Virus record (IMG/VR): IMGVR_UViG_3300049306_000006
Coordinates: 1 to 64,000 of that record
Direction: 5' to 3' (one strand)
Length of the DNA: 64,000 nucleotides
Origin: a virus
Taxonomy: Duplodnaviria > Caudoviricetes
This document shows positions 36,591 through 60,105 of this stretch, piece after piece. The notes under the pieces were generated by a model. It had not been told where the DNA came from. It did not search any database and saw nothing but the letters and a program-made list of their open reading frames with translations. The stretch's first letter is position 1, and each line of letters starts with the position of its first letter. The translations under genes were made by a program, and so were the position numbers.

Positions 36591-37573
36591 TGAGTGAAAT
36601 AACTAACCAGGCACCAGACCAGCAGTTCAGCTCCCGTGAGGTGCCGTGGTTGAAGCTAGGTCGCCTCGTTGAGCAGCCCGCGACCGCGGCCGAGGCCGCC
36701 AAGCTGGCGGGGCTCGACTTCACCGTGTCGCTGCGTGACGTCGCGTGGCTCGACCCAGACAACGGCTTCTCACACGACATAACCAACCGCAAGGCCGTCG
36801 TCGCGGACGACAACGGCGACTTCATGGGGTTCGCCTCGTCGAGCGTCTACCGGCCGCTCCAGTACGCCGAAGCGTTCGACTTCATGGACACGCTCGGCGC
36901 GCCGTACGTGGCCGCCGGCGGCCTGCGTAAGCGTCGTCAAGGCTTCATGGTTGTCAAGCCGGACTTCGACTTCGATGTCATCGGCGGCGAGGACCCACAC
37001 GAGCTGTACGCGGTGCTGCGTACCAGTCACGACTGCACCCGCGGCGTCGAGGTGTCCGTCATGCCGCTGCGTAACCGGTGTATGAATCAGCTGACGCTGC
37101 GAACGTTCTCCAAGGGAGCGCGCTACCGCTGGGCGATCAAGCACACCGGCACGATGCACGCCAAGCTTCAGGAAGCACAGCAGTCGCTCTCACGCCTGAC
37201 AGCGTACGCCGAGCGCTACGCTCAGCTAGTCAGTCAGCTCGTCGAGACGGACGTCAAGCCGGAACGCGCGCGCGAGCTGCTCCAGATCGTGATTCCGCAG
37301 CCGCGGACGGGAAAGACCGAGCGGACTCACGACCAGTGGGTCGAGCGCGTCAACACGATCATGAACATGTGGCAGACGTCGCCGGCCGTCGGCTTCGCGG
37401 GTACCGGCTGGGGCCTGGTCAACGCCGTCTCGGAGTACCTCGAGTGGGGACGCGCCGGCGGTACGCCGGAGTCGCGCTTCCTAAACGCGCTGGAGGGACA
37501 GACACACAAGAAGATCAATCACACCGTTGAGCTGCTGCTCACCGATCACACTGATTTTAGTTACGTGGGTTAA
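36587..37573 (+). CDS. DUF932 (TIGR03299-like) phage/plasmid protein
   Basis: REVPW..LG, AGLDFTV, TSHD, RCMNQL, KHT, GTGWGLVNAVSEY. Confidence 0.85.
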   Translation: MMSEITNQAPDQQFSSREVPWLKLGRLVEQPATAAEAAKLAGLDFTVSLRDVAWLDPDNGFSHDITNRKAVVADDNGDFMGFASSSVYRPLQYAEAFDFMDTLGAPYVAAGGLRKRRQGFMVVKPDFDFDVIGGEDPHELYAVLRTSHDCTRGVEVSVMPLRNRCMNQLTLRTFSKGARYRWAIKHTGTMHAKLQEAQQSLSRLTAYAERYAQLVSQLVETDVKPERARELLQIVIPQPRTGKTERTHDQWVERVNTIMNMWQTSPAVGFAGTGWGLVNAVSEYLEWGRAGGTPESRFLNALEGQTHKKINHTVELLLTDHTDFSYVG

Positions 37574-37579
37574 GTCAGA

Positions 37580-37915
37580 GTGACTACCAACTGGGTGCAC
37601 CGTGCGTTCTGTCGCGGTGCCAACCCAGAGATCTTTGAGGACCCGCGAAACCAGGAGACGGCTCTAGCCTACTGTCAGCGCTGCGTCGTTCGTCCGCAGT
37701 GTCTAGCACACGCGCTGACGTTGCTACCTCACCCCGAGGGAGTCTGGGGCGGTACCACCGACGAGAAAAGAGCTCGCCTACGTCGTGGCGGACGGCGAGT
37801 AACCTGTCCCAGCTGCAGCGTGAGTGACGTCTACGCCGATGATCACAGTCAAGTCTGTGTCAGCTGCGGCCTAGCCTGGCGAATCACCTCGTCTGTGTCA
37901 ACATATCAATCCTGA
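37580..37915 (+). CDS. whiB: WhiB-family transcription factor with C-terminal zinc ribbon
   Basis: W..RAFC...CQRCVVRPQCL..GVWGGTT; extra CPSC...CVSC. Confidence 0.9.
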   Translation: MTTNWVHRAFCRGANPEIFEDPRNQETALAYCQRCVVRPQCLAHALTLLPHPEGVWGGTTDEKRARLRRGGRRVTCPSCSVSDVYADDHSQVCVSCGLAWRITSSVSTYQS

Positions 37916-37933
37916 GACACTCGCTGACGTCCG

Positions 37934-37973
37934 AACGGCCACCTGCCGATACAAACTATCGGAGGTGGCCGTT
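37934..37973. terminator. hairpin between convergent transcription units
   Basis: AACGGCCACCT..CCGATA/TATCGG.AGGTGGCCGTT. Confidence 0.75.
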
Positions 37974-37980
37974 AGAGTGT

Positions 37981-39072
37981 CTACGGTGCGACTCGCCGCA
38001 CGAGAGGGTTAGTTGTGCTGTTTTCACGCTGGAGCTGGAGCGCGTCTACCCACGTCTCCCACCAGAGCCACGCGTTACCCTCGATCGTCCACTTACGCAT
38101 GACTTCTCGACCCCGCTGCGCCAGCTCGGCACGCTGGTCTGCGTCGCTGGCGAGGACCTGCAGCTTGGTTCGCCACTCGCTCGGCGTCCGAGCCAGCCAG
38201 CCGACGCCGAGCTTGTGTAGCCGGGTGTACTCGGCGCGCGGAGAGGCGACGACGGGAACGCCGCACGCCGCGGCCTCCGCCGCCTTTAGCCAAGATTTAG
38301 ATATATTAAACTTAGTATCTGCTAACGGCGTGACGGCGACGCCGAGCGAGCTGACCGCCAGCGGCCACTCCTCGAGCTTGACGACACCCGTCGAGGCGAT
38401 CTCGAACTTCGTCGAGACGCCGAGCGCGGCGTGAACTCCGGAGATCGGACCCGCGACCTTGAAGCGGTGGCCCTCGCGCAGCAGCTGTGCCGGTGCGGCT
38501 CCCATGACCTGTAGGTCAGTCGGGTGCGAGTGTACCGAGCCCGCCCAGCCGATGACGTCCGAGTCGTTGTGTGGCACGTCGAGCAGCCGCTGAGGAACGC
38601 AGTTGTACAGCACGCGACCGGGAGACTTGCGCGCGTAGACCTCCAGCAGCGCCGGCGTCGACACCGTCACCAGCGTCGCGGCCTCACACGCGAGCGTCGT
38701 GTTCTGCCACGAGTGATCGGAGTTGCCGTTGATCGCGGGATGCAGCGCCCGAAACGCGGGGTTGGCGGGGTGGATGCACGTCAGGTCGTCATCCATGTCA
38801 ACGACCACCGCGATTCCCTTGGCGCGCATCAGGCTAATCGCGGGAACCATGTACCTGTGTGTTATTCGCTGCAACACAATGACGTCAGCGTCCTCCGGCA
38901 CCTTGACGTCAACCATGCGGTCACCCTTCATGGAAGCCTGCAGCGCGCGACCGCGTTCCTCGGGCCAGATGATCTCAACCTGGTAGCCGTCACGCGCTAG
39001 CTGGCGCGCCGCCCATATTAATCTATAGAATCCGCAGCCGTGAGCGTCAGCGGGAAAGACGTAAACCTTTAT
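37981..39072 (-). CDS. GT-B (GT4-like) glycosyltransferase
   Basis: GCGFYRL, DMDDD, IGWAGS..H, FNISKSWLKAAEAAACGVPVVAS; start codon ambiguous. Confidence 0.85.
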   Translation of the reverse strand: MKVYVFPADAHGCGFYRLIWAARQLARDGYQVEIIWPEERGRALQASMKGDRMVDVKVPEDADVIVLQRITHRYMVPAISLMRAKGIAVVVDMDDDLTCIHPANPAFRALHPAINGNSDHSWQNTTLACEAATLVTVSTPALLEVYARKSPGRVLYNCVPQRLLDVPHNDSDVIGWAGSVHSHPTDLQVMGAAPAQLLREGHRFKVAGPISGVHAALGVSTKFEIASTGVVKLEEWPLAVSSLGVAVTPLADTKFNISKSWLKAAEAAACGVPVVASPRAEYTRLHKLGVGWLARTPSEWRTKLQVLASDADQRAELAQRGREVMRKWTIEGNAWLWWETWVDALQLQRENSTTNPLVRRVAP

Positions 39073-39088
39073 GACTGCATCACCCTCA

Positions 39089-39637
39089 CTACCACAAGTG
39101 TGGTTGGCCCGCGGTACCCTGTCCGCCGCGGTACTCCCACGTGACGTCAGGAACAAAAGTAAACCGAGCACCCAGCCGGTGCAGCCTGCGGTAGAAGCCC
39201 CACTCGTCCCAGTCGGCGTCGAAGCCCGCGCGCTGCGCTAGCTCAGTGTGAACCAGGCTGGTGACGTAGATGTACGGACGCTCGTAGAGCAGCACCGGGT
39301 CAAAGGGCTGACCGATCGATTCCCAGGTCACCTGGTCACCGTTAAAAGCGCGGCACGGCGAGTAGGCGACGTCGGCGCCAGCGTCGCTGGCGGCGCGCGT
39401 CAGCTTCTCGACGTGATCGTCGTACCAGACGTCGTCGTCGTCTAGGAAAGCAACCCACTCCGTTCGCGCGCCGGCCAGCGCGCGGGTCCGCGTCGTCGCC
39501 GAACCCTCACGCCGGTGATCGATCGCGACGCTGAGCGCCGTCACCGGTCGCGTCTGGCTCAGGACGCTCGCGATCGCCCGCTGCAGCTTCTCGGCTCGCA
39601 CCGGTATGTGAGGAATTACCGCGGTGACGTCTACCAC
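39089..39637 (-). CDS. GT2 glycosyltransferase
   Basis: VTAVIP, SVLSQT, WVAFLDDDD, DEW. Confidence 0.85.
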   Translation of the reverse strand: MVDVTAVIPHIPVRAEKLQRAIASVLSQTRPVTALSVAIDHRREGSATTRTRALAGARTEWVAFLDDDDVWYDDHVEKLTRAASDAGADVAYSPCRAFNGDQVTWESIGQPFDPVLLYERPYIYVTSLVHTELAQRAGFDADWDEWGFYRRLHRLGARFTFVPDVTWEYRGGQGTAGQPHLW

Positions 39638-40221
39638 CGGTCACCCCGTCCGGACGTGTTGTACTGGCCGTGGTGCCAGATCCAGGTGACCTCGGGCACG
39701 TGAAGGAAGCGCGCTCCGATCTCCAGCAGCCGCAGGTAAAAGCCCCAGTCGTCGTAGTCCGAGTCGAGCGCGTGCCGCGGCGGACCGAACAGCGCCTGCT
39801 TGGCCATGTTGGCGTGTACCAGGGACGTCACCGGGATGTACGACCTCTGGCGCAGCAGGTCGGGATCAAACGTCTGACCGAAGCGTCCCCACTCCTCGCG
39901 CAGCGGAATTGCGTTGTTTCGCTCGTCGACGACGCGGCAGCCAGTGTAGACGACCGTGGCGCCCTCTCGCTGAGCGTAGCGCACTAGCGTCTCGAGGTGG
40001 TTCGGCAAGAACTCGTCGTCGTCATCGAGGAAGGCAACCCACGTCGTCGAAATGTGGTAGAGCGCGCGGTTGCGCGTAATCGCTGAGCCGTCGTGCCGCT
40101 TGTCGAACGCGATGACGACGTTCTCCGGCTGGAGCGTCTGCGCGGTGACGCTCGCGACCGCGCGGCCGAGCTCGAAGGTCCGCACCGGAATGTGCGGTAT
40201 GACGACGGTCACGCGATCCAA
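39631..40221 (-). CDS. GT2 glycosyltransferase
   Basis: VTVVIP, TRNRAL, WVAFLDDDD, YDDW. Confidence 0.85.
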   Translation of the reverse strand: MDRVTVVIPHIPVRTFELGRAVASVTAQTLQPENVVIAFDKRHDGSAITRNRALYHISTTWVAFLDDDDEFLPNHLETLVRYAQREGATVVYTGCRVVDERNNAIPLREEWGRFGQTFDPDLLRQRSYIPVTSLVHANMAKQALFGPPRHALDSDYDDWGFYLRLLEIGARFLHVPEVTWIWHHGQYNTSGRGDRW

Positions 40222-40227
40222 CGTAAG

Positions 40228-40569
40228 CTACCGCCTCTCTGACCACGGTAGCGCAAGGCCGTCGTTTTCTCTGCGCGGTACCAGGTGAATGTGTAGGTGA
40301 AACACCGACTGAGTAGCGGCCTCACCCTTTGACGTAATTAAGTTTACGTCTCCGCCGACTCGACGCGCGTACTGAAACGCGGCGTGCGTCGCGTCGATGG
40401 TAGCTAGCCAGTCGGTCGTGAAGTCGATGACGTGCTTCTTAGGCAGTACTATGACGTGACCGCTCGTCACCGGGTTCAGCGGTACAATCACCAGTACGCG
40501 GTGAGCGTCGTACAAGACTTCGGCCGGTTCATCACCGGTCACGATTCGACAAAACACGCAGTCGCTCAC
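40228..40569 (-). CDS. HIT family nucleotide hydrolase
   Basis: DCVFCRI, PLNPVTSGH, QSVFHLHIHLVPR. Confidence 0.9.
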   Translation of the reverse strand: MSDCVFCRIVTGDEPAEVLYDAHRVLVIVPLNPVTSGHVIVLPKKHVIDFTTDWLATIDATHAAFQYARRVGGDVNLITSKGEAATQSVFHLHIHLVPRRENDGLALPWSERR

Positions 40570-40570
40570 T

Positions 40571-41137
40571 TCACCACCTCGTCGGTAATCCGCTGGTATT
40601 ACCCGCATGCCCCCTGTAGAACCAGGTCACCTCACCAGTACCGACGAACTTACCACCCGCCGCCGAGCAGCCGAGGATGAAGCGCCAGTCCTCCTGCGGC
40701 AGCGTCCAGCCCTCGGGGTGATCGGTACAGAACTTTACCTCTTGTGCCAGCTCGGTACGAACCAGCAGCGTCATCGTTGTGTGGTGCGGCTCCGCTGGGT
40801 TGAACTGGCGACCTCGGTGCGTCGGAAACGGGTTGTTACCGTCGAACCACGAGTATCCGACGTCAGCCTCGTGCTCGTACACGAGCCTCAGCAACGTTTC
40901 GATGTGACTTGGGTAGAAGTAGTCGTCGTCATCCAGGAAGGCGACCCACTTGGTGAGGACTCCGTTGAGCGCACGCTGGCGAGTGACGGCCGCGCCGTTC
41001 TTGTCGACGTCCAGCGCGCACGAGATGCCGCCGCTCGGCGGAGACGTCTGCGCGCGCACGCTGTCGCAGGCCGCCTGCAGCAGGCCGTTCGTGACACGCG
41101 GAGGTATCGCTGGCAGCGCGACCGTCACGTCATTCAC
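40571..41137 (-). CDS. GT2 glycosyltransferase
   Basis: WVAFLDDDD, QEDW. Confidence 0.85.
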   Translation of the reverse strand: MNDVTVALPAIPPRVTNGLLQAACDSVRAQTSPPSGGISCALDVDKNGAAVTRQRALNGVLTKWVAFLDDDDYFYPSHIETLLRLVYEHEADVGYSWFDGNNPFPTHRGRQFNPAEPHHTTMTLLVRTELAQEVKFCTDHPEGWTLPQEDWRFILGCSAAGGKFVGTGEVTWFYRGHAGNTSGLPTRW

Positions 41138-41181
41138 GACTCAGACACCTCGCTGTCGTTAAAGCTGTCCACGTGCCTACT

Positions 41182-41697
41182 CTAACCTCTCGCTAGGGCG
41201 CCGACGGCGCACTGCCACGTCGGTCGCGCGTCGGCGACCGGCCAGAGCAGCGCGACCTCATCCATGTTCATAGGAGTGACGCTCGACCAGCCCGTGTTCT
41301 CCAGCAGCTCGACCAGCCGGTGCTCGGTACACTCCCACAGGTGAACGTCTCCGGCCCAGCGTCCCGCGCCGAAGCGCAGCGAGTCCAGCGTGGCGCCGAA
41401 GGCGTCCGAACCCGTCTCGCCGAGCAGCTGGCGACCGCGCTCGACGTCGGGCCCCACGAGCATGATCGCACCGTTGAGAACCACGCAGTCTCGCAGCCGC
41501 GCCAGCAGTCGCTCGGCGTCGTCGATCGTCAGGTGCTCTAGGACGTGTCCCGCGTAGACGCGCTCGACGCTACCCGTCGGCCACGGCAGCTCACTAGTCA
41601 GGTCGACTCGCTGGTCCGCGCGGTGCGGCATCGTCCACAGGTCGACGTTGAGCCAGCCGTCAACGTACCTATCACCGCAACCGAGATTAAGCTGCAC
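41182..41697 (-). CDS. class I SAM-dependent methyltransferase
   Basis: LNLGCG, WLNVD, HVLEHL. Confidence 0.85.
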   Translation of the reverse strand: MQLNLGCGDRYVDGWLNVDLWTMPHRADQRVDLTSELPWPTGSVERVYAGHVLEHLTIDDAERLLARLRDCVVLNGAIMLVGPDVERGRQLLGETGSDAFGATLDSLRFGAGRWAGDVHLWECTEHRLVELLENTGWSSVTPMNMDEVALLWPVADARPTWQCAVGALARG

Positions 41698-42924
41698 CTA
41701 GCCTCCTATCGCAGTAGGTACGGGAATCGGTACGACCCAGCGGCCTCCGTTGTCGGTGAACGAGCGCTCGCTCCGCGTAATGTGTTGCGCGTAGTTCCAC
41801 GCCAGCAGCAGGTACGTCGTTCGCGCCGCGACGCTCGCGTACAGCTCTCGCGGCGCTCTGATCTCGAGCCCGGTTCCCGGAATGAAGCGTCCCTGCTTGG
41901 CCACCGTCGTGTCGACGACGTGACTGAGAGCGTTCGAACCGAGGTCACAGAAGTTCAGCAGCGTCGTCGCCTTGGCCGGCGCACCGTAACCGATGACGAT
42001 TCGTCCCGCCTCCCGCTCGGCGTAGACCAGGTCGTTCAGCCGTTGGCGGACACGCTCGACGCGTCCCTGGAACCCGTGATAGGTACTCTCGTGTCGCAAC
42101 CACTCCTCCGAGTCCTCGACGTGCTGTACCCGGTTGAGCTCGGAGCGAGCGTGCCGCAGCGTCACGCGCAGCGAGCCCGACTGACGCTCGGTCAGTCGAA
42201 CTCCGACGACGTGTAGCCCCCACCGGAGCGCGGCGCGCTTGAGGCTCGTCAGCGAGAAGAAGTTACGGTGCTCGTGGTAGACCAGGTCGAACGCGTTCGA
42301 CACCAGCAGGTCCGGCAGGTACTGGACCTCGACGAAGGCGACTCCCGATCCAGCTAGCAGGTTGCTGACGCCCTCCAGAAAGTCAGAGACGTCCTCGACG
42401 TGGGCGAGGACGTGATTAGCTATGATGACACCGGCGTGGCCGTGGCTGCCGACCAGCTCACGAGCCCGCGTCGCGGTGAACGGCTTCTCGACGACCTCCA
42501 GGCCGCGCTCGCGCGCCGCCGCGACGGGTCCGCTGGCCGGATCGACTCCGAGCGTCGGACAGCCCTCGGTGTGAAAGTGACGTAGCATGTCACCGTCATT
42601 ACACCCGAGCTCGACGACTAGTCGGTGTGCGCAGTCCGCGTAGTCTGACTTCAAGATCCACTTTGCGTAGTCCTCGTGATAGGCGGACAACGGTGCCGAG
42701 GCCGACGAGTAGAACGAGTAGCCCGTCCCAAACAGCGTGCGCTGGTCGACAACCTCGAGCAGCTGGACCAGCCAGCAGCCCGTACAGACTGCCAGCTGGA
42801 GCGGGTGGTAACCGGTGACGTCACCGGCCTGAGCGGTGTAGGCGTCGGCGATCGGCGACGCACCTAAGTCGAGAAAGACTCGCAAGTCGTCGTAGCCGCA
42901 GGCGCTGCACTTAGTTCGCTTCAC
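41698..42924 (-). CDS. NDP-hexose C-methyltransferase
   Basis: CSACG...LDLG..P.AD...CTGCWLVQL zinc domain, ELGCNDG, NHVLAHV, YHEH, GYGAPAKATTLLNF, LLLAWNY. Confidence 0.9.
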   Translation of the reverse strand: MKRTKCSACGYDDLRVFLDLGASPIADAYTAQAGDVTGYHPLQLAVCTGCWLVQLLEVVDQRTLFGTGYSFYSSASAPLSAYHEDYAKWILKSDYADCAHRLVVELGCNDGDMLRHFHTEGCPTLGVDPASGPVAAARERGLEVVEKPFTATRARELVGSHGHAGVIIANHVLAHVEDVSDFLEGVSNLLAGSGVAFVEVQYLPDLLVSNAFDLVYHEHRNFFSLTSLKRAALRWGLHVVGVRLTERQSGSLRVTLRHARSELNRVQHVEDSEEWLRHESTYHGFQGRVERVRQRLNDLVYAEREAGRIVIGYGAPAKATTLLNFCDLGSNALSHVVDTTVAKQGRFIPGTGLEIRAPRELYASVAARTTYLLLAWNYAQHITRSERSFTDNGGRWVVPIPVPTAIGG

Positions 42925-43081
42925 ACGTGATCCTTCGATCCGCTCGACAAGATTGTGTAAAGCGGTACGCGGCCGGTACGACGCCGGTTAGGTATCGACG
43001 TCGTGCCCTCCAGCGTCCCGTTCCCCGGTGACAGCCGAGAAAAAACCACGATTTCCACAAGAACCACACCAGCGCTCTCAC
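42911..43081 (-). CDS. small hypothetical protein
   Basis: GTGA-coupled ORF filling the gap. Confidence 0.4.
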   Translation of the reverse strand: MRALVWFLWKSWFFLGCHRGTGRWRARRRYLTGVVPAAYRFTQSCRADRRITCEAN

Positions 43082-43713
43082 GTGCCTAGTCCCCACTTTC
43101 GTCGTACGCGCTCGTCGGCGCGCAGCCACTCCCGGTGACTCTCCGGAGACTTAAAACCGACGTCGGTGTGATGAAACGTGTCGACGTCCGCGACGTACGA
43201 CTTCATTCCGGCGGCGCGTACCTGCAGCGCGATCTCGTCGTAGCCGTGAAAACCGGGCACCTCGTCGAAGCGTAAGTTATCGATCGCCCACGGAGAGAAA
43301 GCTAGCAGGCTTCCCTCGAGCAGGTCGACGTAACCGGTGCGCTGACCGAAGTCGATTAGCCCTGAGTTGATCCGCTGGTGTCCGACGGGCGAGTCGTTCC
43401 ACCACGCTAGTCCCTGGCTGGCACCGCCGCCGACAACTCCGACTAGCGCTACGTCCGGTTGCCTCAGCGCCGCGAGAAGCTTCTCTTCAGCGCGTGGATC
43501 GATAACCTCTAGGTCATCGTGAAGCAGAACTAGCGCGTCGGGTAGGTAGCTGGAGTGCGCGTCGAGCACGGTGTTGTAAGCCTCAGCGATCGACGCTTGA
43601 TCTGTCACTACAACGACTGAGCTGTTCTTCGGAACACAGGGCTCGACATAACTGTGAAATTTGTCCCACGAACCCACGCAGCAGCCGTAAACTACCACGG
43701 CACCGAACCCCAC
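43078..43713 (-). CDS. GT-A glycosyltransferase-like protein
   Basis: SIAEAYN, LVLLHDD, FDE..GFHGYD. Confidence 0.8.
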   Translation of the reverse strand: MGFGAVVVYGCCVGSWDKFHSYVEPCVPKNSSVVVVTDQASIAEAYNTVLDAHSSYLPDALVLLHDDLEVIDPRAEEKLLAALRQPDVALVGVVGGGASQGLAWWNDSPVGHQRINSGLIDFGQRTGYVDLLEGSLLAFSPWAIDNLRFDEVPGFHGYDEIALQVRAAGMKSYVADVDTFHHTDVGFKSPESHREWLRADERVRRKWGLGT

Positions 43714-44387
43714 TTTCGCGTGAACGTCTCGCGGTCGCGTCCGGCCTGCTCAGCCAGCGCGCCGACGGTTGTGGAGTTGGCTAGTAGATTTTTTGTGGTG
43801 TAACCGGGGAGCAGCAGCACACCGCCAGATTGAATAGCAATATATTCAAAATCATTATCTCCGTACCACCACCGAAAGTCCTCGTCAGCGCGCAGGCCGA
43901 GCTCACCGCGAACGACGAACGCCCACGGACACATACGTGTTATGATGTTGTCGTCGGGTCGTGTCTTGAGCAGCGGCTCAGTCACGTTGCCGTACGCGTA
44001 CGTGCAGGCGACGGCGGGCTTGCGTTCACGTCCCGGACCCTCGAGGGCGTGACAAACGTAGGCTAGCCAGCCGGTAGGCAGCTCGGTGTCGTCGTTCAGC
44101 ACGACGACGTTCCACGCTCTCTCGCCGAGAATCCTCGCCGTCTGTTCGATGACGGCGAAGCCGCGGTTCCACAGCGCGTACAGGTTCGGCGGGCTCTCGT
44201 CCTCGCGAATCACCGTGGCGCTCAGGCCCGTCTGCGCGCGAAACCACAGCGCTGACAAGACGGGCTCGGTGTCGTTGTCGATGACGATGACGTGTGTGCA
44301 GCCCTGCTCGCGTAGGTTCTTTACCAGCGCCGTCACCAGCTCGGTTCGGTCGTGCGTCGGAATGATCGCGTAGCTAGGCACCGTCAC
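43692..44387 (-). CDS. GT2 glycosyltransferase
   Basis: IIPT, VIDN, WNRG, VLNDD, DEDFRWWYGDND; likely start GTG 44387. Confidence 0.8.
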   Translation of the reverse strand: MTVPSYAIIPTHDRTELVTALVKNLREQGCTHVIVIDNDTEPVLSALWFRAQTGLSATVIREDESPPNLYALWNRGFAVIEQTARILGERAWNVVVLNDDTELPTGWLAYVCHALEGPGRERKPAVACTYAYGNVTEPLLKTRPDDNIITRMCPWAFVVRGELGLRADEDFRWWYGDNDFEYIAIQSGGVLLLPGYTTKNLLANSTTVGALAEQAGRDRETFTRKWGSVPW

Positions 44388-44450
44388 GAGGTCTACCGTA
44401 GCACGTCGGTGAGTCCGCGAGAACGAGGACCGTGGCTCTCGGCTTAGCAC

Positions 44451-45125
44451 CTAGAATGATGCGATCTCGTGCACGATACTAAAACGGATCTGGTCCGTAG
44501 CTGTCCACGCGTGCGGCACGTTAGCACCGACGTCACCGTTGGGGGTGTTAGTCACGAAGTACTGATCCAGACCCGACGACACGTTAACGATACCGGCCCG
44601 GTTGGCGGTACCGTTGTCTAGCATGTAGCACGCGCCGGTGGCGGTGACGCCGTCGCTCGAGGCGGCGAACGGCGTCGACCACAGGTAACGACCCGTCCCC
44701 TGGTTTGAGCCCGCGCCCCAGAGCGTCAGCACCTCGACGGCGATCGTGCGGTAGCCGACCTTCAGCCAGCGCCCCGTCACCGAGCCGTCACCGACGTCGG
44801 GAGCTACGCCCGTAGAGGTAAACACAGGAGAGTACGTAGTCCAGCCGGGCTGCTCGCTCAGTGAAGCGATCACGTAGTTTCCGCTCGGCGGCACGACCAG
44901 GACCATCACACGCTCGCCGACGGCGACGTAGCCGATCAGTGACGTCAGCGGCACCGGCGTCGCCGCCTGGCCGAGGACGCCGTCACCGTCGAAGTTACCC
45001 AGCGGCGTAACCGCGCTCGCTGTGACTATCGTCGCGGGACGCAGGCTCCACGCGCTGGGCCGCTCGACGCTCTTAGCGTCGAGGACACCGCTTACCACCA
45101 GCTCGGTGAAGTCGGGAGTCGTCAC
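44451..45125 (-). CDS. minor tail protein
   Basis: GTGA-coupled to the upstream tail gene; OB-like N-terminus and WTTYSP beta-rich C-terminus. Confidence 0.7.
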   Translation of the reverse strand: MTTPDFTELVVSGVLDAKSVERPSAWSLRPATIVTASAVTPLGNFDGDGVLGQAATPVPLTSLIGYVAVGERVMVLVVPPSGNYVIASLSEQPGWTTYSPVFTSTGVAPDVGDGSVTGRWLKVGYRTIAVEVLTLWGAGSNQGTGRYLWSTPFAASSDGVTATGACYMLDNGTANRAGIVNVSSGLDQYFVTNTPNGDVGANVPHAWTATDQIRFSIVHEIASF

Positions 45126-46198
45126 GAGTACACCTTTCGGAGCGTGTTTGACATCGGTGCTCCCGCGCTGAGCGGTAGGCTCCACGCGACCTCTACCCAG
45201 CGCTCTCCCTGCCACAGCACCACGTCGTACGAGTCGTGACGTGGGTCAGCCAGCGTCGTGAGCGTCACCTGCTCGACGAGCGTCTGCGCCTGCGCCAGGT
45301 TAGCCGCGATCAGCCCCGCCTGCGCCGACGAGAACACCTGTCGGTTGCTGACCTCCGGCACGACGAAGCCGCGGTTCTGGATCGAGTGCGGCGCGCTGGA
45401 GGGCACGTCGGCGACTCCGACGACCGGTCCGTCGAACGAGCTCGCTCCGTTGCCGACGACGATGAAGCGGTTGGGTGCGTTGATCAGGTTGTCGCTCTCT
45501 ACGATACCAGCGCGCAGGACGAAGTTCTGGTGATCGAAGTCGAACGACGGCAGCTCGTGTCTCGGATCGACCGGTCGCTTGAATCGCAGGACCGAGTCGT
45601 TGTCGAACCACGGGCTCAGGTAGTCGCCGTCCAGCGCCAGCTGCTCGATGATTGAACCGCCGCGCGCTCCGACGCTCCACGCACCTAGGCTGATGAACGG
45701 CGTAGGTTCGACCTGAAAGCTGACCGAAAAGCGTGACACAAACCGCTGGAGCAGCGACGAGACCAGCTCACCGTTGACGGTGTTGGCGCCGAATGACGTA
45801 GACGTCTGCTGGTCGATGATAAACATCTCGTCGTAGAACGACGCGCTGGACGTCGTGCCGCCGGTGCTGACGAAGCGCGCCCAGTCGGACGGCACGTAGC
45901 GCCCAAGAAAGAACTCGCTCTCCCGAATTATCATGAACAGCTCCAGGCGTGACGAGACGCTGTTGAACGCCAGCGTGTCCTCACGATCGAGCAGCAGTCC
46001 GCTGATCGTGCGCTTGATCGTTCGCTGTGTGTCGTGCGCGAGGGTCGCGCTGAGTTTACGCAGCGGGTGAACCTGGCGCCGGTAGCCCGTCACCGCGTCG
46101 ACGATGTCGAACCGAAACGAGATCGCACGCTGGCCGACGGCGCCCGTGATATCCAGCTCAGCGTGTTGAAACTTAGTTAAGTGCGTCACGGATCTCAC
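45122..46198 (-). CDS. minor tail (hub-like) protein
   Basis: Position; PNRFIVV, DPRHDSYDVV. Confidence 0.7.
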   Translation of the reverse strand: MRSVTHLTKFQHAELDITGAVGQRAISFRFDIVDAVTGYRRQVHPLRKLSATLAHDTQRTIKRTISGLLLDREDTLAFNSVSSRLELFMIIRESEFFLGRYVPSDWARFVSTGGTTSSASFYDEMFIIDQQTSTSFGANTVNGELVSSLLQRFVSRFSVSFQVEPTPFISLGAWSVGARGGSIIEQLALDGDYLSPWFDNDSVLRFKRPVDPRHELPSFDFDHQNFVLRAGIVESDNLINAPNRFIVVGNGASSFDGPVVGVADVPSSAPHSIQNRGFVVPEVSNRQVFSSAQAGLIAANLAQAQTLVEQVTLTTLADPRHDSYDVVLWQGERWVEVAWSLPLSAGAPMSNTLRKVYS

Positions 46199-49100
46199 GT
46201 ACCCAGGTCGGCGGGATCGACGACGCTCGCGGTCTCTGTCACCTGGATCACGCTGACCGACGCCAGGTAGAGCCTCCTGTTGTCGCGTACGTCGCCGGCG
46301 GGAACCACCACCGTCGCGAACCAGCGGTTGCCCAGCTCGTCACGGACGCAGACGTAGTCCAGGTCCGCCCACGCCAGGTCACGCAGCCCGCGGAAGTTGG
46401 CCAGCGACGGCAGCGTGATCGCGGCGTTGTTCACCAGGATGACGCGCTGGAACCGCTCTCCGCCACGCTCCAGCGGACGCAGCGCCACGACGAAGTCACG
46501 ACCGTACAGCTGCTGAAGCGCTACCTCCTCCGCCTCGGGGAAGGCGAACTGCTCGACGGGTTGTCCCTCCCACTGCATGACGTACGCGAGGCTGCTGCTC
46601 GGCGCCGCGTTCGAGGTAAAGATCAGTACCGAGTTGCCGTCGCCCGCTCCCTGAACTCCCGGCGACGGCAGCGTCGCCGAGCCCGTCACCCACGGGCCCG
46701 CGAAGTCCAGCGCGTTCAGCGTCCTGATTCGGTACCAGCTGGTGACGCCGACCCGCGCCTCGAAGTCGCTGAGTGAGTTGACACAGTCCGGACTGTCTGT
46801 GAGCATGATTGTCTGCCAGTCGGTTAGCGCGTCGCTCCGCTGGACCTCGAGCTGGCCGCCGGAGAGCGCCGCGTTGAGCGCTCTAAAGCCGGCAAACGAC
46901 ACGACCGGGTCGACGTTGGTGTTTCCGGGAGTACGACGACTACGCACACCGTAGCTGCCGGCCGCGGTCAGACTAGCGTCGGTGACGGTGAGCTGCCACG
47001 TGGGCGTCTCGGTACCGCCGACCTGCCACGCGCGCGCTCGCAGCGTCGTACCGACGACTTGGCCTATGACGTTGTACGACGCACCGGCGTAGTTGACGAC
47101 GTTCGCCAGGGTCGTGTCCGCTAGGTCCGTGATAACACCCGCCACTTGCTTGTGAATGTGAAGCGTCACCGAGTTGTCAGTCTTCACGTGTACCTCGATA
47201 AAGTACCGGTTAGACGTATCGAGGTGACGGAGAACGACTCCCGCTTCCATGTCATTACCGGTTGCTACCTGTGAGAAGCTAACGCCTAGCGCCTCGACGT
47301 ACTGGTCCGGGTGCGGAGCTGTGATGATTGAGTTGCGTGACGTGCTAGCGCTGGTCAACAGGTGAGTTCCCGCCGCTCCGTCGACGTCGTAGTCGCCGGC
47401 AGCTCCCCCCGTGTTAGTCCACGCCTGACCGGTCGAGGCGTTGTTCCACGTGTCGACGTTGACCCGGTCAAACGTGTCACAGGCGCCAAACCCGTTCCAG
47501 GTCAGCTGGTTGTAGCCGATGCCCGTCGGAATGCAGCCGAACGGTGCGGCGCACACGAGCGTCGCCAGTCCCGTCACGGGCTGGCTAGCCGTCGTCAGCG
47601 CGAACCCGGTGACGGCGGGCGGGTCCTGTGAGAAGATGAGCACCGCGTCGCTCGTCGTGTCCTCTGCCGTTCCCGAGATGCTCGGCGACTGCCAGCTCAG
47701 CGTCACCGTCGAGCCCTGCGGCGCGTAGTAGGTGGCGGGACCGGTAGCCGCCGCCGTCGGACTAGGCTGCCACGAGCCGGTTGGTCCGTCGGCGACTAGG
47801 ATCTGCCACTGGTTGCCGGCCGCCTCACCGGCGGCCTGCCAGCGCCAGTCGACGTCACCGGCCGCCGCGCTGAACGTCGGCGGACTCGCGAACCGCAGGT
47901 TGACTTCACGCCAGCCGTCTACGATCTCGTCGAGCGCGTCGAAGTCCGTCACCGAGATCGAGACCGTGGACAGACCCGTAGCGACGTCGACCAGCGTCAG
48001 CGGCACGGTCGTCTCGCCGAAGCGCCGTGCGTAAAAGCGAACCTGTGGAAACTGCGCCGCGCTGGTGACCGGATCATCTTCAATCTCTTGGATGGGACTG
48101 TGACTCGCGTAGACCGGCGCGCCGTAGCTGGTACCGTAGGCGTGTACTCCGGTAACGATCGTCGAGCTCGTGTGAAGCGTCAGGTGCGGCAGAACCAGGT
48201 CGTCACCGTCGCTGACGGTGAACGTGTCTCCCTCCGTCGTGGTCTGGTTGACCTGAACCCCGCGGTGAGTCGGCAGCTCGTAGTAGCCGCGCACGGCGTG
48301 AATCTTCGGTGTGCCCTGGAGGTTCGACAGGCTCGACATGTCACGGTGATAGATCGTGACTGTGTACTCACCGGGCGTGAGCGTCGCTCCCTGCGTGAAC
48401 GTCACGGGACTGTACAGCCGAGCAGCGATGGCGCCGATGTTGTAGAAGTCCGCTAGGAGCTCAGGAAAGTTACTGAACGTGTTGTCGTACGTTCGAAACC
48501 CACCGTAGAGCACGCGGGTCTCCTCGCAGTACAGCACCTCAAGCTCGAGGTAGCCGAGGAGCACCGTAGAGACGGTGGCGTTGTTCTGCATGAACACCGT
48601 GAGGGCCTCGGCGGCCGCGGCGCTCGCACGAAACCTGTTTAGCTCCTGGAAGCGCCAGGGAAGTACCGTGCGCTGGTTACGAAAGCTGACCGTAGAGTCC
48701 CACGCAGGGTTGAGCTCGGTGATCGAGAGCGTCGAGATGTTGCCGGGCTCGGCCGTGTTGGTGATCTCGGTGACGTCGGGAAACGCAAATCCCTTAAACG
48801 CCGCCTGGTTGTGAATGCGAAATTCCATGTTGTCGGCGTTGCTGACGTTAGGCGACTGCAGCACGTAGTGCAGTCGCACGTCGACGATCCGTTTATCCAG
48901 CAGCACCTGCGCGTAGGAGTCCGTGTCGAAGCTGACCTGGAGCTGGCTGGAGGTTCCGGTGTCGGGGTCAAAGATGATAAACTTACGGTCACCTGGGTTC
49001 AGGAGCGCAGCTACGCCCTCCGTCGCGTCGATCGAGCCCGGGTTAGTGACGGTAATCGCGGACGGCTTGATCCGAACCGACTTCACCGGACCGGTCAGGT

Positions 49101-49323
49101 GCTCGCGTCCCGTCGGGTAGATCGAGATGAAATCACACGTCTGTGCAATGATGTTACCGGGTACCTCATTAACGTAGAACGCGCCGCTGACGGGTACCGC
49201 GGTGTGATCAATTCGGAACGTGTAGCCGCGCTCGGTGATGCCGTCTGGTAGGTAGTGCGCGTTGCGAATCGGCACCCACTCTTGACCGATGACGTACGGC
49301 GCGTGTGGATTGTAGTTTCCCAT
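46195..49323 (-). CDS. large minor tail protein (with carbohydrate-binding-like inserts)
   Basis: 1042 aa directly after the tape measure gene; DTFDR...GQAW lectin-like segment. Confidence 0.75.
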   Translation of the reverse strand: MGNYNPHAPYVIGQEWVPIRNAHYLPDGITERGYTFRIDHTAVPVSGAFYVNEVPGNIIAQTCDFISIYPTGREHLTGPVKSVRIKPSAITVTNPGSIDATEGVAALLNPGDRKFIIFDPDTGTSSQLQVSFDTDSYAQVLLDKRIVDVRLHYVLQSPNVSNADNMEFRIHNQAAFKGFAFPDVTEITNTAEPGNISTLSITELNPAWDSTVSFRNQRTVLPWRFQELNRFRASAAAAEALTVFMQNNATVSTVLLGYLELEVLYCEETRVLYGGFRTYDNTFSNFPELLADFYNIGAIAARLYSPVTFTQGATLTPGEYTVTIYHRDMSSLSNLQGTPKIHAVRGYYELPTHRGVQVNQTTTEGDTFTVSDGDDLVLPHLTLHTSSTIVTGVHAYGTSYGAPVYASHSPIQEIEDDPVTSAAQFPQVRFYARRFGETTVPLTLVDVATGLSTVSISVTDFDALDEIVDGWREVNLRFASPPTFSAAAGDVDWRWQAAGEAAGNQWQILVADGPTGSWQPSPTAAATGPATYYAPQGSTVTLSWQSPSISGTAEDTTSDAVLIFSQDPPAVTGFALTTASQPVTGLATLVCAAPFGCIPTGIGYNQLTWNGFGACDTFDRVNVDTWNNASTGQAWTNTGGAAGDYDVDGAAGTHLLTSASTSRNSIITAPHPDQYVEALGVSFSQVATGNDMEAGVVLRHLDTSNRYFIEVHVKTDNSVTLHIHKQVAGVITDLADTTLANVVNYAGASYNVIGQVVGTTLRARAWQVGGTETPTWQLTVTDASLTAAGSYGVRSRRTPGNTNVDPVVSFAGFRALNAALSGGQLEVQRSDALTDWQTIMLTDSPDCVNSLSDFEARVGVTSWYRIRTLNALDFAGPWVTGSATLPSPGVQGAGDGNSVLIFTSNAAPSSSLAYVMQWEGQPVEQFAFPEAEEVALQQLYGRDFVVALRPLERGGERFQRVILVNNAAITLPSLANFRGLRDLAWADLDYVCVRDELGNRWFATVVVPAGDVRDNRRLYLASVSVIQVTETASVVDPADLGT

Positions 49324-49326
49324 GTC

Positions 49327-51834
49327 CTAAACCGCCCTCGCTCGTACGGCGACGCCGCGACGCGCGATCGTCGCCGCGATGCCCGCGCCGACGGCCTGGC
49401 CGACGCTGAAGGCCTCGCTCTCCGTCGGTACCGCGCCGGAGAAGTTCACGTTGATCGCTCCCGGACTAAAGACGACTCCGCCGGCACCGCCGGAGACGGC
49501 GCTGCGAATCAGGCCGATCAGCTTCGACAGCGGCGCGACGACCTCGTCTTCGGATCCCTCGCCGACGTTCGCAATGACGCCGCCCGGCCGGTGCGGGACT
49601 ATCGCTCCCTCCGCTAGACGTGGGATTCGTCCGAGGTCACCGGGGAGGACGGCGTCGATCGACGCGATACCGGAGTTGATCTTATCGATGGCACGGTTGA
49701 GAAAACCCTTGACGGAGCCGACGATGTCGCCGGCGATGTCGCCGATGAACGAACCGACTGACCTAAAGCCGTTCATAAACGACTCGATCAGGTTCTTTCC
49801 GGCACGTGCGAAGATCGGTACTAGCTCGCGGATCTTGTCGGGCACCGACGCGATGAAGTCCACCGCGGCGTTGAAGCCGTTGACGATCGTGTCTCGCGCG
49901 GTCGTCACAGCCGAGGTGACGGCGTCGACGATAAACGTCTTCACGAGAGTGAACGCCGTGGACACACGTCCCGGTACCGAGTCGAGAAACGTAAGCACCG
50001 CGTTGAAGCCGTTGACGAACAGCTCGCTCGTCGCGGTGACGGCTGCTCGCGTCAAGTTGATGATGAAGTCCCTGACGCGCACGAAGATTGCGGCGACTCG
50101 CTCCGGCAGCGAGGCTAGAAACTCGACGATCTTGCCGGGAAGAACCTGGATCGCAAACAGAATGAGACCGATTGACGCGCCTACGGTGAGCAGCACCCGG
50201 TCAAACACGGCACCGATGAAGTCGCCGATGAGCGACGGAATCGACGCTAGAAACTTGCCGAAGTCGCTGACGCGGCTACCGACTCCGCTGATGAAGTCAC
50301 CGACGCGCGTGACGGCCGCCTCGAGAGCGTTACCCACGCGTTCCGGAACGGTACCGACAAAGTTTCCGAACTCGCGCAGCTTACCCAGCGCCTGTGAAAC
50401 AAATCGTCCGATCGCCGCGCCGAGCTTGGTTACTCCGGTTCCTATGAGCTCGAGGACGTCGAGTGTCCTGTGAAAGCTGAACAGCGAGACCTCGAACGTA
50501 GCGACCAGTCCGGCGATCGCCACTCCCAGCGCCTTGACGATCAGTACTAGGTCCTGCAGCGTGCGCTGACCCTCGGCCGACTTGAAGAACGCGTTGAGCT
50601 CGTTGACGCTGTCGGTCAGCGTCTTAATTAAGTCGTGTCCCGCGTCCTCGGTTCCAGCGAAGATGGTGCCGAGCAGGCCGCCGACGGCCTTCAGCAGGTC
50701 AACCAGCTCCTTAACGGTGGTAAACGCATCCTCAATGAAGGTGTTGAAGTCGTTGGACTCGATCGCCTGGTTGAGAAACGCGGCGAAGCTGTCGAGCGCG
50801 TGACCGAGCGCCGTAGCGATTCGCTCGATGAAGGGCAACGACTCCCGAACCGACGAGCCGACCGCGTCGAAGAAGCGAACTAGCGGTCCGGTGAGCGTCG
50901 AGATGATTCGCGCCGTCGCCGCGAACAGCTCGTTGAAGACGTGCACGCTGCGCGCCGACGCTAGGAAGCCGACGAAGTCGTGAACGAGTCGACCTACCGC
51001 GGCCGCCACGGCGTTGAAGCTTCCCGCGATCTGCGGCAGTATTCCCGCCAGAACGGTGAAGCTACCCTTCACCTGTGAGAAGAACGCCTCCTGTGTGACC
51101 CGCTGAAAGCTGCGCAGCGTCGGCAGGAGCGCCGCGACCTCGCGAGCGACCAGCGCCGCCGACGGTGACAGCTTCTTGAGCGCTTCGTTGATCTTGTCTA
51201 TGTCACCGCTGGCGAGCGCGCTGACCGCCTCACCGAAGTTCTGAAACGCGACGACGACTGGAACTATCGCCGCGATCAGAACACCGAGACCTGACGGCAG
51301 GATGCCGACCAGCCCGATGAGGTTAGACAGGGCAGCAGCGAGCGCGATGATAGCAGGTACCAGTGCGAGGATGAGAACTAGCAGCGGACTCGACGTTACG
51401 AAGCTACCCAGGACTCCGGCGAGCTGGCCGAGCAGACCGACAGTCGAGCTGAGACCCGCTCCTAGCTTCTTGAGACCCCGCTCGAAGTGGTCACCGAGGT
51501 CGTCGAAGACGTCACTCACTCGCGTGAACGCGTTGCGCAGCGTTCGCTGAAGGCGGTTCAAGCCGTCGGGCATCCCGCGACCGATACGTGACGTAGTCGT
51601 GACGACCGCGTCGTCGATGTCCCTGAACGCCCTGGTCGCTGTCCTAGCGGTGTCCCTGAAGTGCGCGTCTACCTTGTCGAGGGCGTCGTCTATGCCGTCA
51701 TCGATGTTCTTAACGGTCTTGTCGAGCTCCCTGTCGACGTCGTCGAGAACGTCCTTGATGTCCTTCTTGACCTGCTTTAGGGACTTATCGCGCACCACGA
51801 TGTCGACGTACGCCACGTCGATCGGTTGTGTCAC
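49327..51834 (-). CDS. tape measure protein
   Basis: Ala/Leu-rich amphipathic repeats; IPRLAEGAIV...VGEG..DEVVAPL C-terminus. Confidence 0.9.
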   Translation of the reverse strand: MTQPIDVAYVDIVVRDKSLKQVKKDIKDVLDDVDRELDKTVKNIDDGIDDALDKVDAHFRDTARTATRAFRDIDDAVVTTTSRIGRGMPDGLNRLQRTLRNAFTRVSDVFDDLGDHFERGLKKLGAGLSSTVGLLGQLAGVLGSFVTSSPLLVLILALVPAIIALAAALSNLIGLVGILPSGLGVLIAAIVPVVVAFQNFGEAVSALASGDIDKINEALKKLSPSAALVAREVAALLPTLRSFQRVTQEAFFSQVKGSFTVLAGILPQIAGSFNAVAAAVGRLVHDFVGFLASARSVHVFNELFAATARIISTLTGPLVRFFDAVGSSVRESLPFIERIATALGHALDSFAAFLNQAIESNDFNTFIEDAFTTVKELVDLLKAVGGLLGTIFAGTEDAGHDLIKTLTDSVNELNAFFKSAEGQRTLQDLVLIVKALGVAIAGLVATFEVSLFSFHRTLDVLELIGTGVTKLGAAIGRFVSQALGKLREFGNFVGTVPERVGNALEAAVTRVGDFISGVGSRVSDFGKFLASIPSLIGDFIGAVFDRVLLTVGASIGLILFAIQVLPGKIVEFLASLPERVAAIFVRVRDFIINLTRAAVTATSELFVNGFNAVLTFLDSVPGRVSTAFTLVKTFIVDAVTSAVTTARDTIVNGFNAAVDFIASVPDKIRELVPIFARAGKNLIESFMNGFRSVGSFIGDIAGDIVGSVKGFLNRAIDKINSGIASIDAVLPGDLGRIPRLAEGAIVPHRPGGVIANVGEGSEDEVVAPLSKLIGLIRSAVSGGAGGVVFSPGAINVNFSGAVPTESEAFSVGQAVGAGIAATIARRGVAVRARAV

Positions 51835-52196
51835 TTTCGTCCCCTCAGCTGCAGTCCCACCCGGTTGACGTCACTGACCGTAACGCCTCCCGGCTTAAAC
51901 CACGTCGGTCGTCGGATACCGTGACTCGGTACCGGCGGCGGAGCCTCGTCATAGATCGAGATGTAACCGATCAGTCTCTCGTTGAGGTCCTCGAGACCCG
52001 CTACCTGTTCCTTCGTCAGCGTTCCCTGTGTGATAGAATCGTCGATCAGCCACCAGTGTGCCAGGTTGAGAAACCTGGCCGCCTCGAGTCCTAGTGCATC
52101 AACTCCACGGGCAGCGCACCAGCCGTCGAAGATGTGCCAACGCCGACGCTCACTGATGAGTCCGACGAGTCCGACGACAGCGTCGAACGGCCTTTT
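51831..52196 (-). CDS. tail assembly chaperone, -1 frameshift extension (gpGT-like)
   Basis: Start-less open frame (RPFDAVV...WHIFDGWCAARGVD..RFLNLAHWWL...RGRK*) whose TGA overlaps the tape measure GTG. Confidence 0.7.
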   Translation of the reverse strand, partial: KRPFDAVVGLVGLISERRRWHIFDGWCAARGVDALGLEAARFLNLAHWWLIDDSITQGTLTKEQVAGLEDLNERLIGYISIYDEAPPPVPSHGIRRPTWFKPGGVTVSDVNRVGLQLRGRK

Positions 52197-59995: not shown

Positions 59996-60105
59996 AGAAC
60001 ACAACCCTCTCGTGATGTCCGGTTCTAACCTGGCCCGTTAAGATCCGTTTGATTCGGAATACTACTTGTTACCGTGTCGCTTGAGCAAACAGGCGCCGCC
60101 GCGAC

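Follow-up and report, generated by a model that had tools for sequence, protein, structure and literature searches.

A glycosyltransferase and sugar C-methyltransferase cassette in the structural operon of an uncultured tailed phage is a candidate virion glycosylation system

Introduction

To our knowledge, glycosylation of phage virions has been shown experimentally for a few mycobacteriophages only. The virion glycans of mycobacteriophages shield the particles from antibodies. The chlorovirus PBCV-1 uses cytoplasmic virus-encoded GT-A glycosyltransferases and methyltransferases to build a methylated, deoxyhexose-containing capsid glycan independently of the host secretory glycosylation, and its A064R protein combines two rhamnosyltransferase domains with a methyltransferase domain. 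Elsewhere, C-methyl-branched deoxysugars occur in antibiotics and in rare surface glycans of bacteria. Here the analysis concerns a cassette of nine enzyme genes, including six glycosyltransferase genes and a sugar C-methyltransferase gene, in an uncultured phage of actinobacteria, the IMG/VR virus record IMGVR_UViG_3300049306_000006 (Duplodnaviria; Caudoviricetes), of which positions 1 to 64,000 are referred to as the window. Gene content and position support the proposal, made in a preliminary description of this DNA, that the cassette is a phage-encoded glycan-building system in a late operon, and virion proteins are the acceptors that we favor.

For the mycobacteriophages Che8, Corndog and Myrna, glycans on the virion have been demonstrated (Freeman et al. 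2023, as relayed in PMC11600133 and PMC12619734). The citing papers also describe cluster O mycobacteriophages, in which phage glycosyltransferases and an O-methyltransferase modify capsid and tail-tube proteins (PMC11600133, PMC12619734), the O-methyltransferase being followed by three tandem glycosyltransferases that act on the capsid and tail-tube subunits (PMC11600133). The present locus resembles these systems in outline and adds a predicted enzyme of branched-sugar synthesis.

Results

Enzyme identities were obtained from Pfam, PHROG and NCBIfam scans of the window proteins. The nine co-oriented genes occupy 37981-44450 on the minus strand, directly 3' of the genes of the structural operon. 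In order of transcription, with amino acid (aa) lengths where needed, the features are:

43692-44450, minus strand: p252, GT-A glycosyltransferase of 252 aa, first core gene; alternative start at 44387
43078-43713, minus strand: GT25, GT-A glycosyltransferase of the Glyco_tranf_2_5 family (PF13712, E 1e-07), second core gene
42925-43077: intergenic gap of 153 nucleotides (nt), not found in relatives, where both genes abut
41698-42924, minus strand: nucleoside diphosphate (NDP)-4-keto-hexose 3-C-methyltransferase of the TylC3/TcaB9/MtmC type, third core gene
41182-41697, minus strand: small class I S-adenosylmethionine (SAM) methyltransferase (PF08241, weak at E 0.0024; phrog_6636; LNLGCG motif)
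40571-41137, minus strand: GT2c, short GT2 glycosyltransferase (PF00535, E 4e-08; phrog_14775, E 1.5e-29)
40228-40608, minus strand: HIT-family (Hint-like) nucleotide hydrolase/transferase, between two GT2 genes (PF01230, E 5e-14)
39631-40221, minus strand: GT2b, short GT2 glycosyltransferase (PF00535, E 3e-14; phrog_14775)
39089-39637, minus strand: GT2a, short GT2 glycosyltransferase, extra paralogue (PF00535, E 8e-13; phrog_14775)
37981-39171, minus strand: GT-B glycosyltransferase, last operon gene (PF13524 (Glyco_trans_1_2), E 1e-07; PF13692; phrog_7162, E 3e-33)

The cassette comprises five GT-A and one GT-B glycosyltransferases, two methyltransferases and one HIT protein, which agrees with the earlier count, p252 being placed by motifs, model and homologues; the location of nine co-oriented genes directly downstream of tail genes was likewise borne out. 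The block had been taken to start at 44387, which is an in-frame GTG within the first gene, whose longest open reading frame (ORF) reaches 44450. The genes had also been described as mostly overlapping; the junctions do abut or overlap, except at the 153-nt gap (between 43078 and 42924) 5' of the C-methyltransferase gene.

The C-methyltransferase has the three-part architecture of its type, with an N-terminal zinc domain (PF08421, Methyltransf_13, E 1e-16), a class I SAM domain (PF13489, Methyltransf_23, E 5e-18) and a C-terminal Methyltransf_14 domain (PF08484, E 1e-37). Residues 4-406 align end to end with MtmC (4RV9, E 2e-70) and TcaB9 (3NDI, E 4e-66). The zinc cysteines of TcaB9 and MtmC have aligned counterparts in C6, C9, C47 and C50. 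None of these four varies among 21 clade members, nor do Y69, H175, Y216, E218 and H219, for which Tyr76, His181, Tyr222, Glu224 and His225 of TcaB9 are presumably the active-site equivalents. By these alignments the encoded enzyme is full-length and looks like a working NDP-4-keto-hexose 3-C-methyltransferase with its catalytic residues intact, in line with its first assignment as an NDP-hexose C-methyltransferase. Only seven distant matches to it were found among phage records, and a literature search found no paper on phage sugar C-methyltransferases.

A profile and synteny survey, as the preliminary description had proposed, confirmed the enzyme families and showed that the core p252-GT25-C-methyltransferase recurs in other viruses. 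The IMG/VR scan returned 47 contigs with a C-methyltransferase 50-64% identical to that of this phage and 13 more with a distant one (~30%). More than 100 further relatives, with 56-78% identity, were found in the protein database, each encoded on a metagenomic contig no longer than 115 kb. The core was found in the 47 IMG/VR contigs with virion genes as neighbors every time, in three settings. It follows the tail genes in this phage and in loci L013, L021, L024-L028, L031, L036, L039, L043 and L050, and in this phage and about a dozen others the order after the core is small methyltransferase, GT2c, GT2b and GT-B. In L010 and L011 the core lies between the portal and capsid genes, and in L014, L017, L022, L038 and L072 it lies upstream of the tail genes and is followed by a short-chain dehydrogenase/reductase (SDR) gene and one GT2.

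In a FastTree phylogeny that also contained the distant viral group and 79 cellular homologues, the 40 phage C-methyltransferases formed one clade (support 100), set off by a stem 0.76 substitutions per site in length. They shared at most 38% identity with cellular genomes, short or phage-like contigs of metagenome-assembled genomes (MAGs) aside. Because of this clade, its long stem, the low cellular identity and the linkage to virion genes, the cassette is, on comparative grounds, identified as an old phage-borne module. Recent capture of a host operon, which had been named as the finding that would overturn the proposal, was excluded by the monophyletic phage clade, the cellular identity of at most 38% and the genome-like GC content of the block (~64%, as throughout the window). 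A search of the cassette block for near-identical DNA in 50,697 phage records gave no match, so that it has no cultured close relative there. Two Micromonosporaceae MAG contigs of 2-3 kb (L073 and L074; JAEHDK0100006xx) nest inside the phage C-methyltransferase clade and offer a lead to its host range. The sole other "cellular" match above 38% identity was L072 (JAZJZX010000040.1, 38 kb, binned as Chloroflexota), which encodes the cassette and a homologue of the tape measure and probably derives from a phage.

In 28 of the 47 related loci a 4,6-dehydratase-family SDR gene is present, mostly abutting the C-methyltransferase gene. These SDRs match PF16363 (E 1e-55 to 6e-58), and by NCBIfam are nearest to guanosine diphosphate (GDP)-mannose 4,6-dehydratase (Gmd-like) or deoxythymidine diphosphate (dTDP)-glucose 4,6-dehydratase (RmlB-like), both below the equivalog cut-offs. 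Dehydratases of these kinds make the 4-keto-6-deoxy sugars needed by such C-methyltransferases. The whole 98.9-kb genome of this phage gave no match to Epimerase, GDP_Man_Dehyd, RmlD_sub_bind, dTDP_sugar_isom or DegT, so that by these profile searches it is without an SDR dehydratase or reductase, a 3,5-epimerase or an aminotransferase; the absence of dehydratase and reductase first noted for the window therefore holds for the genome. No dehydratase was found in six other near-complete cassette-bearing genomes. Since relatives carry a 4,6-dehydratase gene while this genome has none, comparison lends good support to the idea that the phage draws on a host NDP-4-keto-6-deoxysugar, the diversion that had been suggested at the outset. 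Of the IMG/VR loci, L013 has the C-methyltransferase closest to that of this phage (64%), and in this relative a dehydratase-family SDR was seen as well; it lies ~7 kb past the cassette on the opposite strand (G003:C1:86901-87671, minus strand), matches in two pieces and may be a displaced or divergent dehydratase.

The first two core genes encode GT-A proteins. For p252 the Pfam scan gave nothing above threshold, yet its motifs (IIPTHDR and NDD, with D120 and D121 invariant among 21 homologues), a weak PF00535 match (E 7e-4), an AlphaFold model with a GT-A fold (predicted local distance difference test (pLDDT) score 89.7) and 34% identity to annotated glycosyltransferases of Streptomyces phages Zuko and KimJongPhill identify it, by sequence and model, as a GT-A glycosyltransferase. 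Foldseek matches of the model were GlcAT, ppGalNAc-T2, TarS/TarP and RmlT (E 3e-9 to 1e-7). A GmaR-like assignment was rejected; the profile match to this flagellin glycosyltransferase was weak (E 0.003) and spanned the nucleotide-binding start only. In GT25, H65-D66-D67 (HDD) is invariant among 25 homologues, and the AlphaFold model (pLDDT 92.4) had as its best fold match the UDP-binding protein majastridin (2NXV/2QGI; template modeling (TM) score 0.74-0.76); tblastn of GT25 against the 50,697 phage records gave no match.

The three short GT2 proteins are 182-196 aa long, each with a VAFLDDDD motif. Orthologues of GT2c are 57-68% identical in L013, L025, L036, L039 and L050, and those of GT2b share 50-79% identity in close relatives. 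GT2b is 37-39% identical to the Zuko and KimJongPhill glycosyltransferases and 33% identical to those of Arthrobacter phage Atuin, and its closest PDB sequence relative is AvpGT (9JMA, E 4e-07). GT2a shares 48% identity with GT2b and 41% with GT2c, has no orthologue in the closest relatives L036, L039 and L050, and is an extra paralogue particular to this phage in that comparison. A GT-A fold/Asp-x-Asp-type signature was thus found in five proteins (DDDD in GT2a-c, NDD in p252 and HDD in GT25). The GT-B protein is 38% identical to Atuin gp165 and has orthologues (43-65% identity) in 21 related loci; a PDB sequence search with it gave no match. Its longest ORF overlaps GT2a by 83 nt and the true start is uncertain; just past the GT2a stop (38990-39180, minus strand) there is no obvious in-frame ATG, GTG or TTG.

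The small methyltransferase, found in 18 related loci, is 40% identical to the annotated methyltransferase gp5 of KimJongPhill and is probably a glycan O-methyltransferase. The HIT protein, which the preliminary description had counted as part of the glycan machinery, has an HLHIHLV triad and a best NCBIfam match to HinT that falls below the HinT cut-off. The gene is present as described; its membership in the cassette is doubtful because it belongs to a common mobile actinophage family, found in 277 actinophage records (those listed annotate it as a HIT gene standing alone), and is absent from the cassettes of the closest relatives, none of the 47 related cassettes having a homologue. On this distribution it is probably a mobile accessory gene that landed in the cassette and is unrelated to it, and it may have a late-operon role unconnected to sugars; a role in nucleotide-sugar turnover is a possible alternative. 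Among 62 IMG/VR HIT loci, HIT lies directly before a short GT2 of a different glycan cassette in two and inside a tail module in another two (these four being L156 5001-5908, L160 5001-5893, L187 and L212 5001-5339). The latter two are relatives of this phage, with HIT flanked by the genes for tail completion and the chaperone.

The record is 98,878 bp long and rated complete by CheckV, the window being its first 64 kb. From 63.4 down to 38.0 kb the minus strand is a single structural operon, ending at 37981, where it meets a converging plus-strand block. Upstream of the cassette its features are:

60304-63435, minus strand: portal fusion
58286-60004, minus strand: capsid (phrog_777; ~30% identity to Microbacterium, Mycobacterium and Gordonia phage capsids)
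56063-56746, minus strand: major tail protein (tail tube)
between the major tail and tape measure genes in the operon listing: adaptor, tail-completion and chaperone-like genes
49327-51834, minus strand: tape measure
46195-49323 and 45122-46198, minus strand: tail proteins
44451-45215, minus strand: 254-aa protein, encoded after the last tail gene and before p252 (weak phrog_13144 match)

The 254-aa protein gave no match in the Pfam search. It accompanies tail358 in nine related loci, thus traveling with tail genes, and is possibly a minor tail protein. The stop codon of its gene abuts the p252 start. Within 37500-46500, promoter- and terminator-like sites were not more frequent than in shuffled sequence; because of this and of the abutting or overlapping stop and start codons, tail genes and cassette are apparently co-transcribed late in infection. 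At the 153-nt gap, a GAAGGA ribosome-binding site precedes the GTG start at 42924, the RNA fold z-score (-1.07) is unremarkable, and inspection of the gap and of a 72-aa ORF at 42911-43129 (isoelectric point (pI) 12) revealed nothing notable.

The constant linkage to virion genes, the apparent co-transcription, the soluble enzymes and the mycobacteriophage precedent together point to a cytoplasmic glycosylation cassette that modifies virion proteins, a reading to which we give a probability of roughly 0.55. Several observations weigh against it. The search for an acceptor among the structural proteins identified none, the capsid protein shows no C-terminal extension relative to its homologues, and the NITTTAPPTPP at the C-terminus of the major tail protein recurs in G027, whose genome is complete and has no GT2 gene, so that this Thr/Pro motif is not diagnostic of glycosylation. 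The fold matches of p252 and GT25 are generic, with transferases for proteins, teichoic acids and glycans all among them. The likeness to the mycobacteriophage systems demonstrated by experiment is one of functional analogy only: tblastn with GT-B, GT2b, p252, GT25 and the small methyltransferase against the 50,697 phage records (E <= 1e-5 or 1e-3; GT2a, GT2c and HIT were not among the queries) returned no Mycobacterium phage match. Finally, the genome encodes no 4-ketoreductase, which bears on the final form of the branched sugar. Three possible fates of the 4-keto group are reduction by a host reductase, a transferase that accepts the keto sugar, or a bifunctional enzyme resembling MtmC, which additionally reduces the 4-keto group with NADPH (PMC10269268).

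Ser/Thr-rich tracts were seen in a 546-aa adaptor-like protein, the chaperone-like protein and the portal fusion. The 546-aa protein (53598-55238, minus strand) is a head-tail adaptor homologue (phrog_783, residues 305-540) with a 300-residue N-terminal extension that includes a long Ala/Thr/Ser/Gly-rich linker at about residues 165-270; the extension is a possible decoration domain and candidate glycan acceptor. The chaperone-like protein of 141 aa (52091-52516, minus strand) has a C-terminal Ser-rich tract, SSDSSDSSVSVGVGTSSTAG, which sits where tail-chaperone frameshifting usually occurs.

That the structural proteins yielded no acceptor would also fit a different soluble target, be it a small molecule, for instance an anti-phage compound made by the host, or a host protein or non-structural protein of the phage. 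The cassette transferases are soluble, and AvpGT, the closest PDB sequence relative of GT2b, was crystallized with the nucleoside Ara-A. Six transferases, however, imply an oligosaccharide and not a single inactivating sugar, and the constant linkage to virion genes over 47 contigs is hard to reconcile with a metabolite target; we regard this explanation as improbable.

The preliminary description had left open whether the glycan is placed on the virion or on the host surface, where it would mask receptors. For the latter, the cassette would modify a host cell-envelope glycopolymer (teichoic acid, an arabinogalactan-type polymer or a lipid-linked precursor) from the cytoplasmic side, and the masking would keep progeny or competing phages from adsorbing to infected or lysing cells. 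The wall-teichoic-acid transferases TarS, TarP and RmlT are among the GT-A fold matches of p252, and residues 614-811 of the 1042-aa tail protein (46195-49323, minus strand) match the phage phosphodiesterase family phrog_24476 (E 5e-24). Such a phosphodiesterase-like tail region suggests a teichoic-acid-type receptor. In addition, a tyrosine integrase is present in the relatives G010 and G012. On the other hand, no membrane segment was found in the cassette proteins (no 19-residue hydrophobic window >1.75), families of flippases, polymerases and initiating phosphoglycosyltransferases had no match among them, and the cassette lies in late structural operons in three insertion contexts and not in a lysogeny module. 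Eight of ten near-complete cassette genomes, this one included, are without a tyrosine integrase or large serine recombinase, so that lysogenic conversion is not a general role of the cassette; conversion of the Gtr type was rejected for this phage, whose cassette has no membrane proteins and whose genome (G000) has no integrase or serine recombinase. Late receptor masking via a cytoplasmic precursor is possible, and modification of the envelope as a whole is judged unlikely, if a little less so than a soluble target. The virion was therefore favored over host-surface masking, in view of the missing membrane segments and the integrase distribution.

The genome is not devoid of sugar-nucleotide genes, as the replication module encodes a sugar-1-phosphate nucleotidyltransferase next to a candidate glycosyltransferase:

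28590-29411, plus strand: sugar-1-phosphate nucleotidyltransferase, replication module
27211-28590, plus strand: candidate GT-B directly upstream of the nucleotidyltransferase, 459 aa (432 aa from an internal start)

These genes bear on the idea that the glycan is made or lengthened by the cassette on hydroxymethylated pyrimidines of the phage DNA itself, as happens in T4-like and other hypermodifying phages. Consistent with it, the genome has a thymidylate-synthase homologue (17537-18442, plus strand), a dCMP deaminase, a dUTPase_2/MazG-like enzyme and a P-loop kinase-like gene besides the nucleotidyltransferase, and a C5 DNA methylase gene was also confirmed. There are phages whose GT-A and GT-B enzymes place glycans of several sugars on DNA (bioRxiv 10.1101/2023.12.21.572611; PMC13326640). 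The genome nevertheless already has its own candidate DNA transferase. In the family of the 27211-28590 protein, seven of 21 members match Glyco_trans_1_2, the sole PDB sequence match of the family profile is T4 DNA beta-glucosyltransferase (E 0.026), and the Atlas model resembles PF09198 clusters (TM 0.57-0.69); these lines, each weak and in agreement, make it look like a T4 beta-glucosyltransferase-like GT-B and a candidate DNA transferase.

A co-variation test used ten cassette-bearing genomes, each at least 90% complete. The thymidylate-synthase homologue (PF00303) and the 27211-28590 GT-B are both present in G000, G003, G004 and G013, and both missing from the other six (G005, G009, G010, G011, G012 and G015). 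A Tet_JBP search of these six gave no match, a negative that is uninformative because the control was silent everywhere. By the joint presence and absence of the two genes, the DNA module stands apart from the cassette, which works in its absence. The cassette proteins are moreover mostly acidic (pI 4.7-6.6), and the cassette lies 20 kb from the nucleotide-metabolism genes on the other strand, whereas hypermodification genes are known to cluster with such genes (bioRxiv 10.1101/2023.12.21.572611). DNA glycosylation by the cassette was thus largely rejected through the co-variation test and is very improbable.

Discussion

For a cassette that glycosylates virion proteins, a pathway can be proposed in which substrate, branched-sugar product, order of transferases and acceptor are all inferred. 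The C-methyltransferase would take an NDP-4-keto-6-deoxyhexose produced by a host 4,6-dehydratase, likely dTDP-4-keto-6-deoxyglucose (from RmlB) or GDP-4-keto-6-deoxymannose (from Gmd), and add a SAM-derived methyl group at C-3. A host reductase would then act on C-4 of the branched sugar, unless the sugar is passed on in its keto form. All six glycosyltransferases (the core GT-A pair, the three short GT2 proteins and the GT-B) would build an oligosaccharide from this sugar and ordinary host NDP-sugars, and the small methyltransferase would O-methylate it. As acceptor, at least one virion protein is most likely, and the particle would thereby gain a coat of methylated glycan.

Taken across the clade, the fuller proposal is that these soil actinobacteriophages, a large clade not described before, decorate their virions with a glycan containing a 3-C-methyl-branched 6-deoxyhexose, made by diverting the host pool or with their own dehydratase. 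We put this forward tentatively, at a little short of even odds; if true, this would be the first case of a virus making a branched-chain sugar. The cassette suggests virion glycosylation that is larger and chemically richer, with six transferases, O-methylation and a C-methyl-branched deoxysugar, and that occurs in dozens to hundreds of uncultured phages from soil. The cassette also presents a case of metabolic parasitism, in which sister phages encode a dehydratase for the 4-keto substrate and this phage apparently relies on that of its host. Confirmation would provide new sugar-tailoring enzymes and transferases for glycoengineering, and would prompt one to ask how a soil phage benefits from a glycan coat, for example through stability, adhesion or evasion of host surface traps.

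In comparison with known systems, the mycobacteriophages Che8, Corndog (cluster O) and Myrna likewise have, by the descriptions cited above, soluble phage glycosyltransferases and a small methyltransferase. Six transferases are encoded here as against two or three there, together with a sugar 3-C-methyltransferase of a form absent from cultured phage records and, in relatives of this phage, a 4,6-dehydratase; the present cassette is embedded in the structural operon, and its action on the virion is predicted. Streptomyces phages Zuko and KimJongPhill (Zukovirus) and Arthrobacter phage Atuin carry homologues of p252 (34%), GT2b (37-39%), the small methyltransferase (40%) and GT-B (26-38%). In KimJongPhill the order is glycosyltransferase-methyltransferase-glycosyltransferase, and a UDP-glucose dehydrogenase-methyltransferase-GT-B group lies beside the terminase genes. 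Unlike this phage, these three have no C-methyltransferase or GT2_5 enzyme, and their glycosyltransferase and methyltransferase genes, the function of which is predicted, are located at the genome ends and not after the tail genes. We know of no C-branched sugar in the capsid glycan of PBCV-1, a virus of eukaryotic algae. T4-type DNA glucosylation and hypermodification likewise employ phage GT-A and GT-B enzymes using NDP-sugars, and this genome has a thymidylate-synthase homologue; the cassette, in contrast, is also present in six near-complete genomes without that homologue.

The closest enzymatic parallels to the C-methyltransferase are antibiotic-pathway enzymes of actinomycetes, namely TcaB9 of Micromonospora chalcea, MtmC of Streptomyces argillaceus, KijD1 and the TylC3 type, with which the phage enzyme shares the full architecture, the four zinc cysteines and the Tyr/His/Tyr-x-Glu-His catalytic set. 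Phage relatives, too, have 4,6-dehydratase genes adjoining the C-methyltransferase gene. The present enzyme differs in being phage-encoded and in belonging to a separate clade on a long stem. Its genome has no 2,3-dehydratase, 3-ketoreductase, aminotransferase or 4-ketoreductase partner, so that the substrate is probably a plain 4-keto-6-deoxyhexose and not a 2,6-dideoxy sugar, and the product is presumably attached to a glycan instead of a polyketide.

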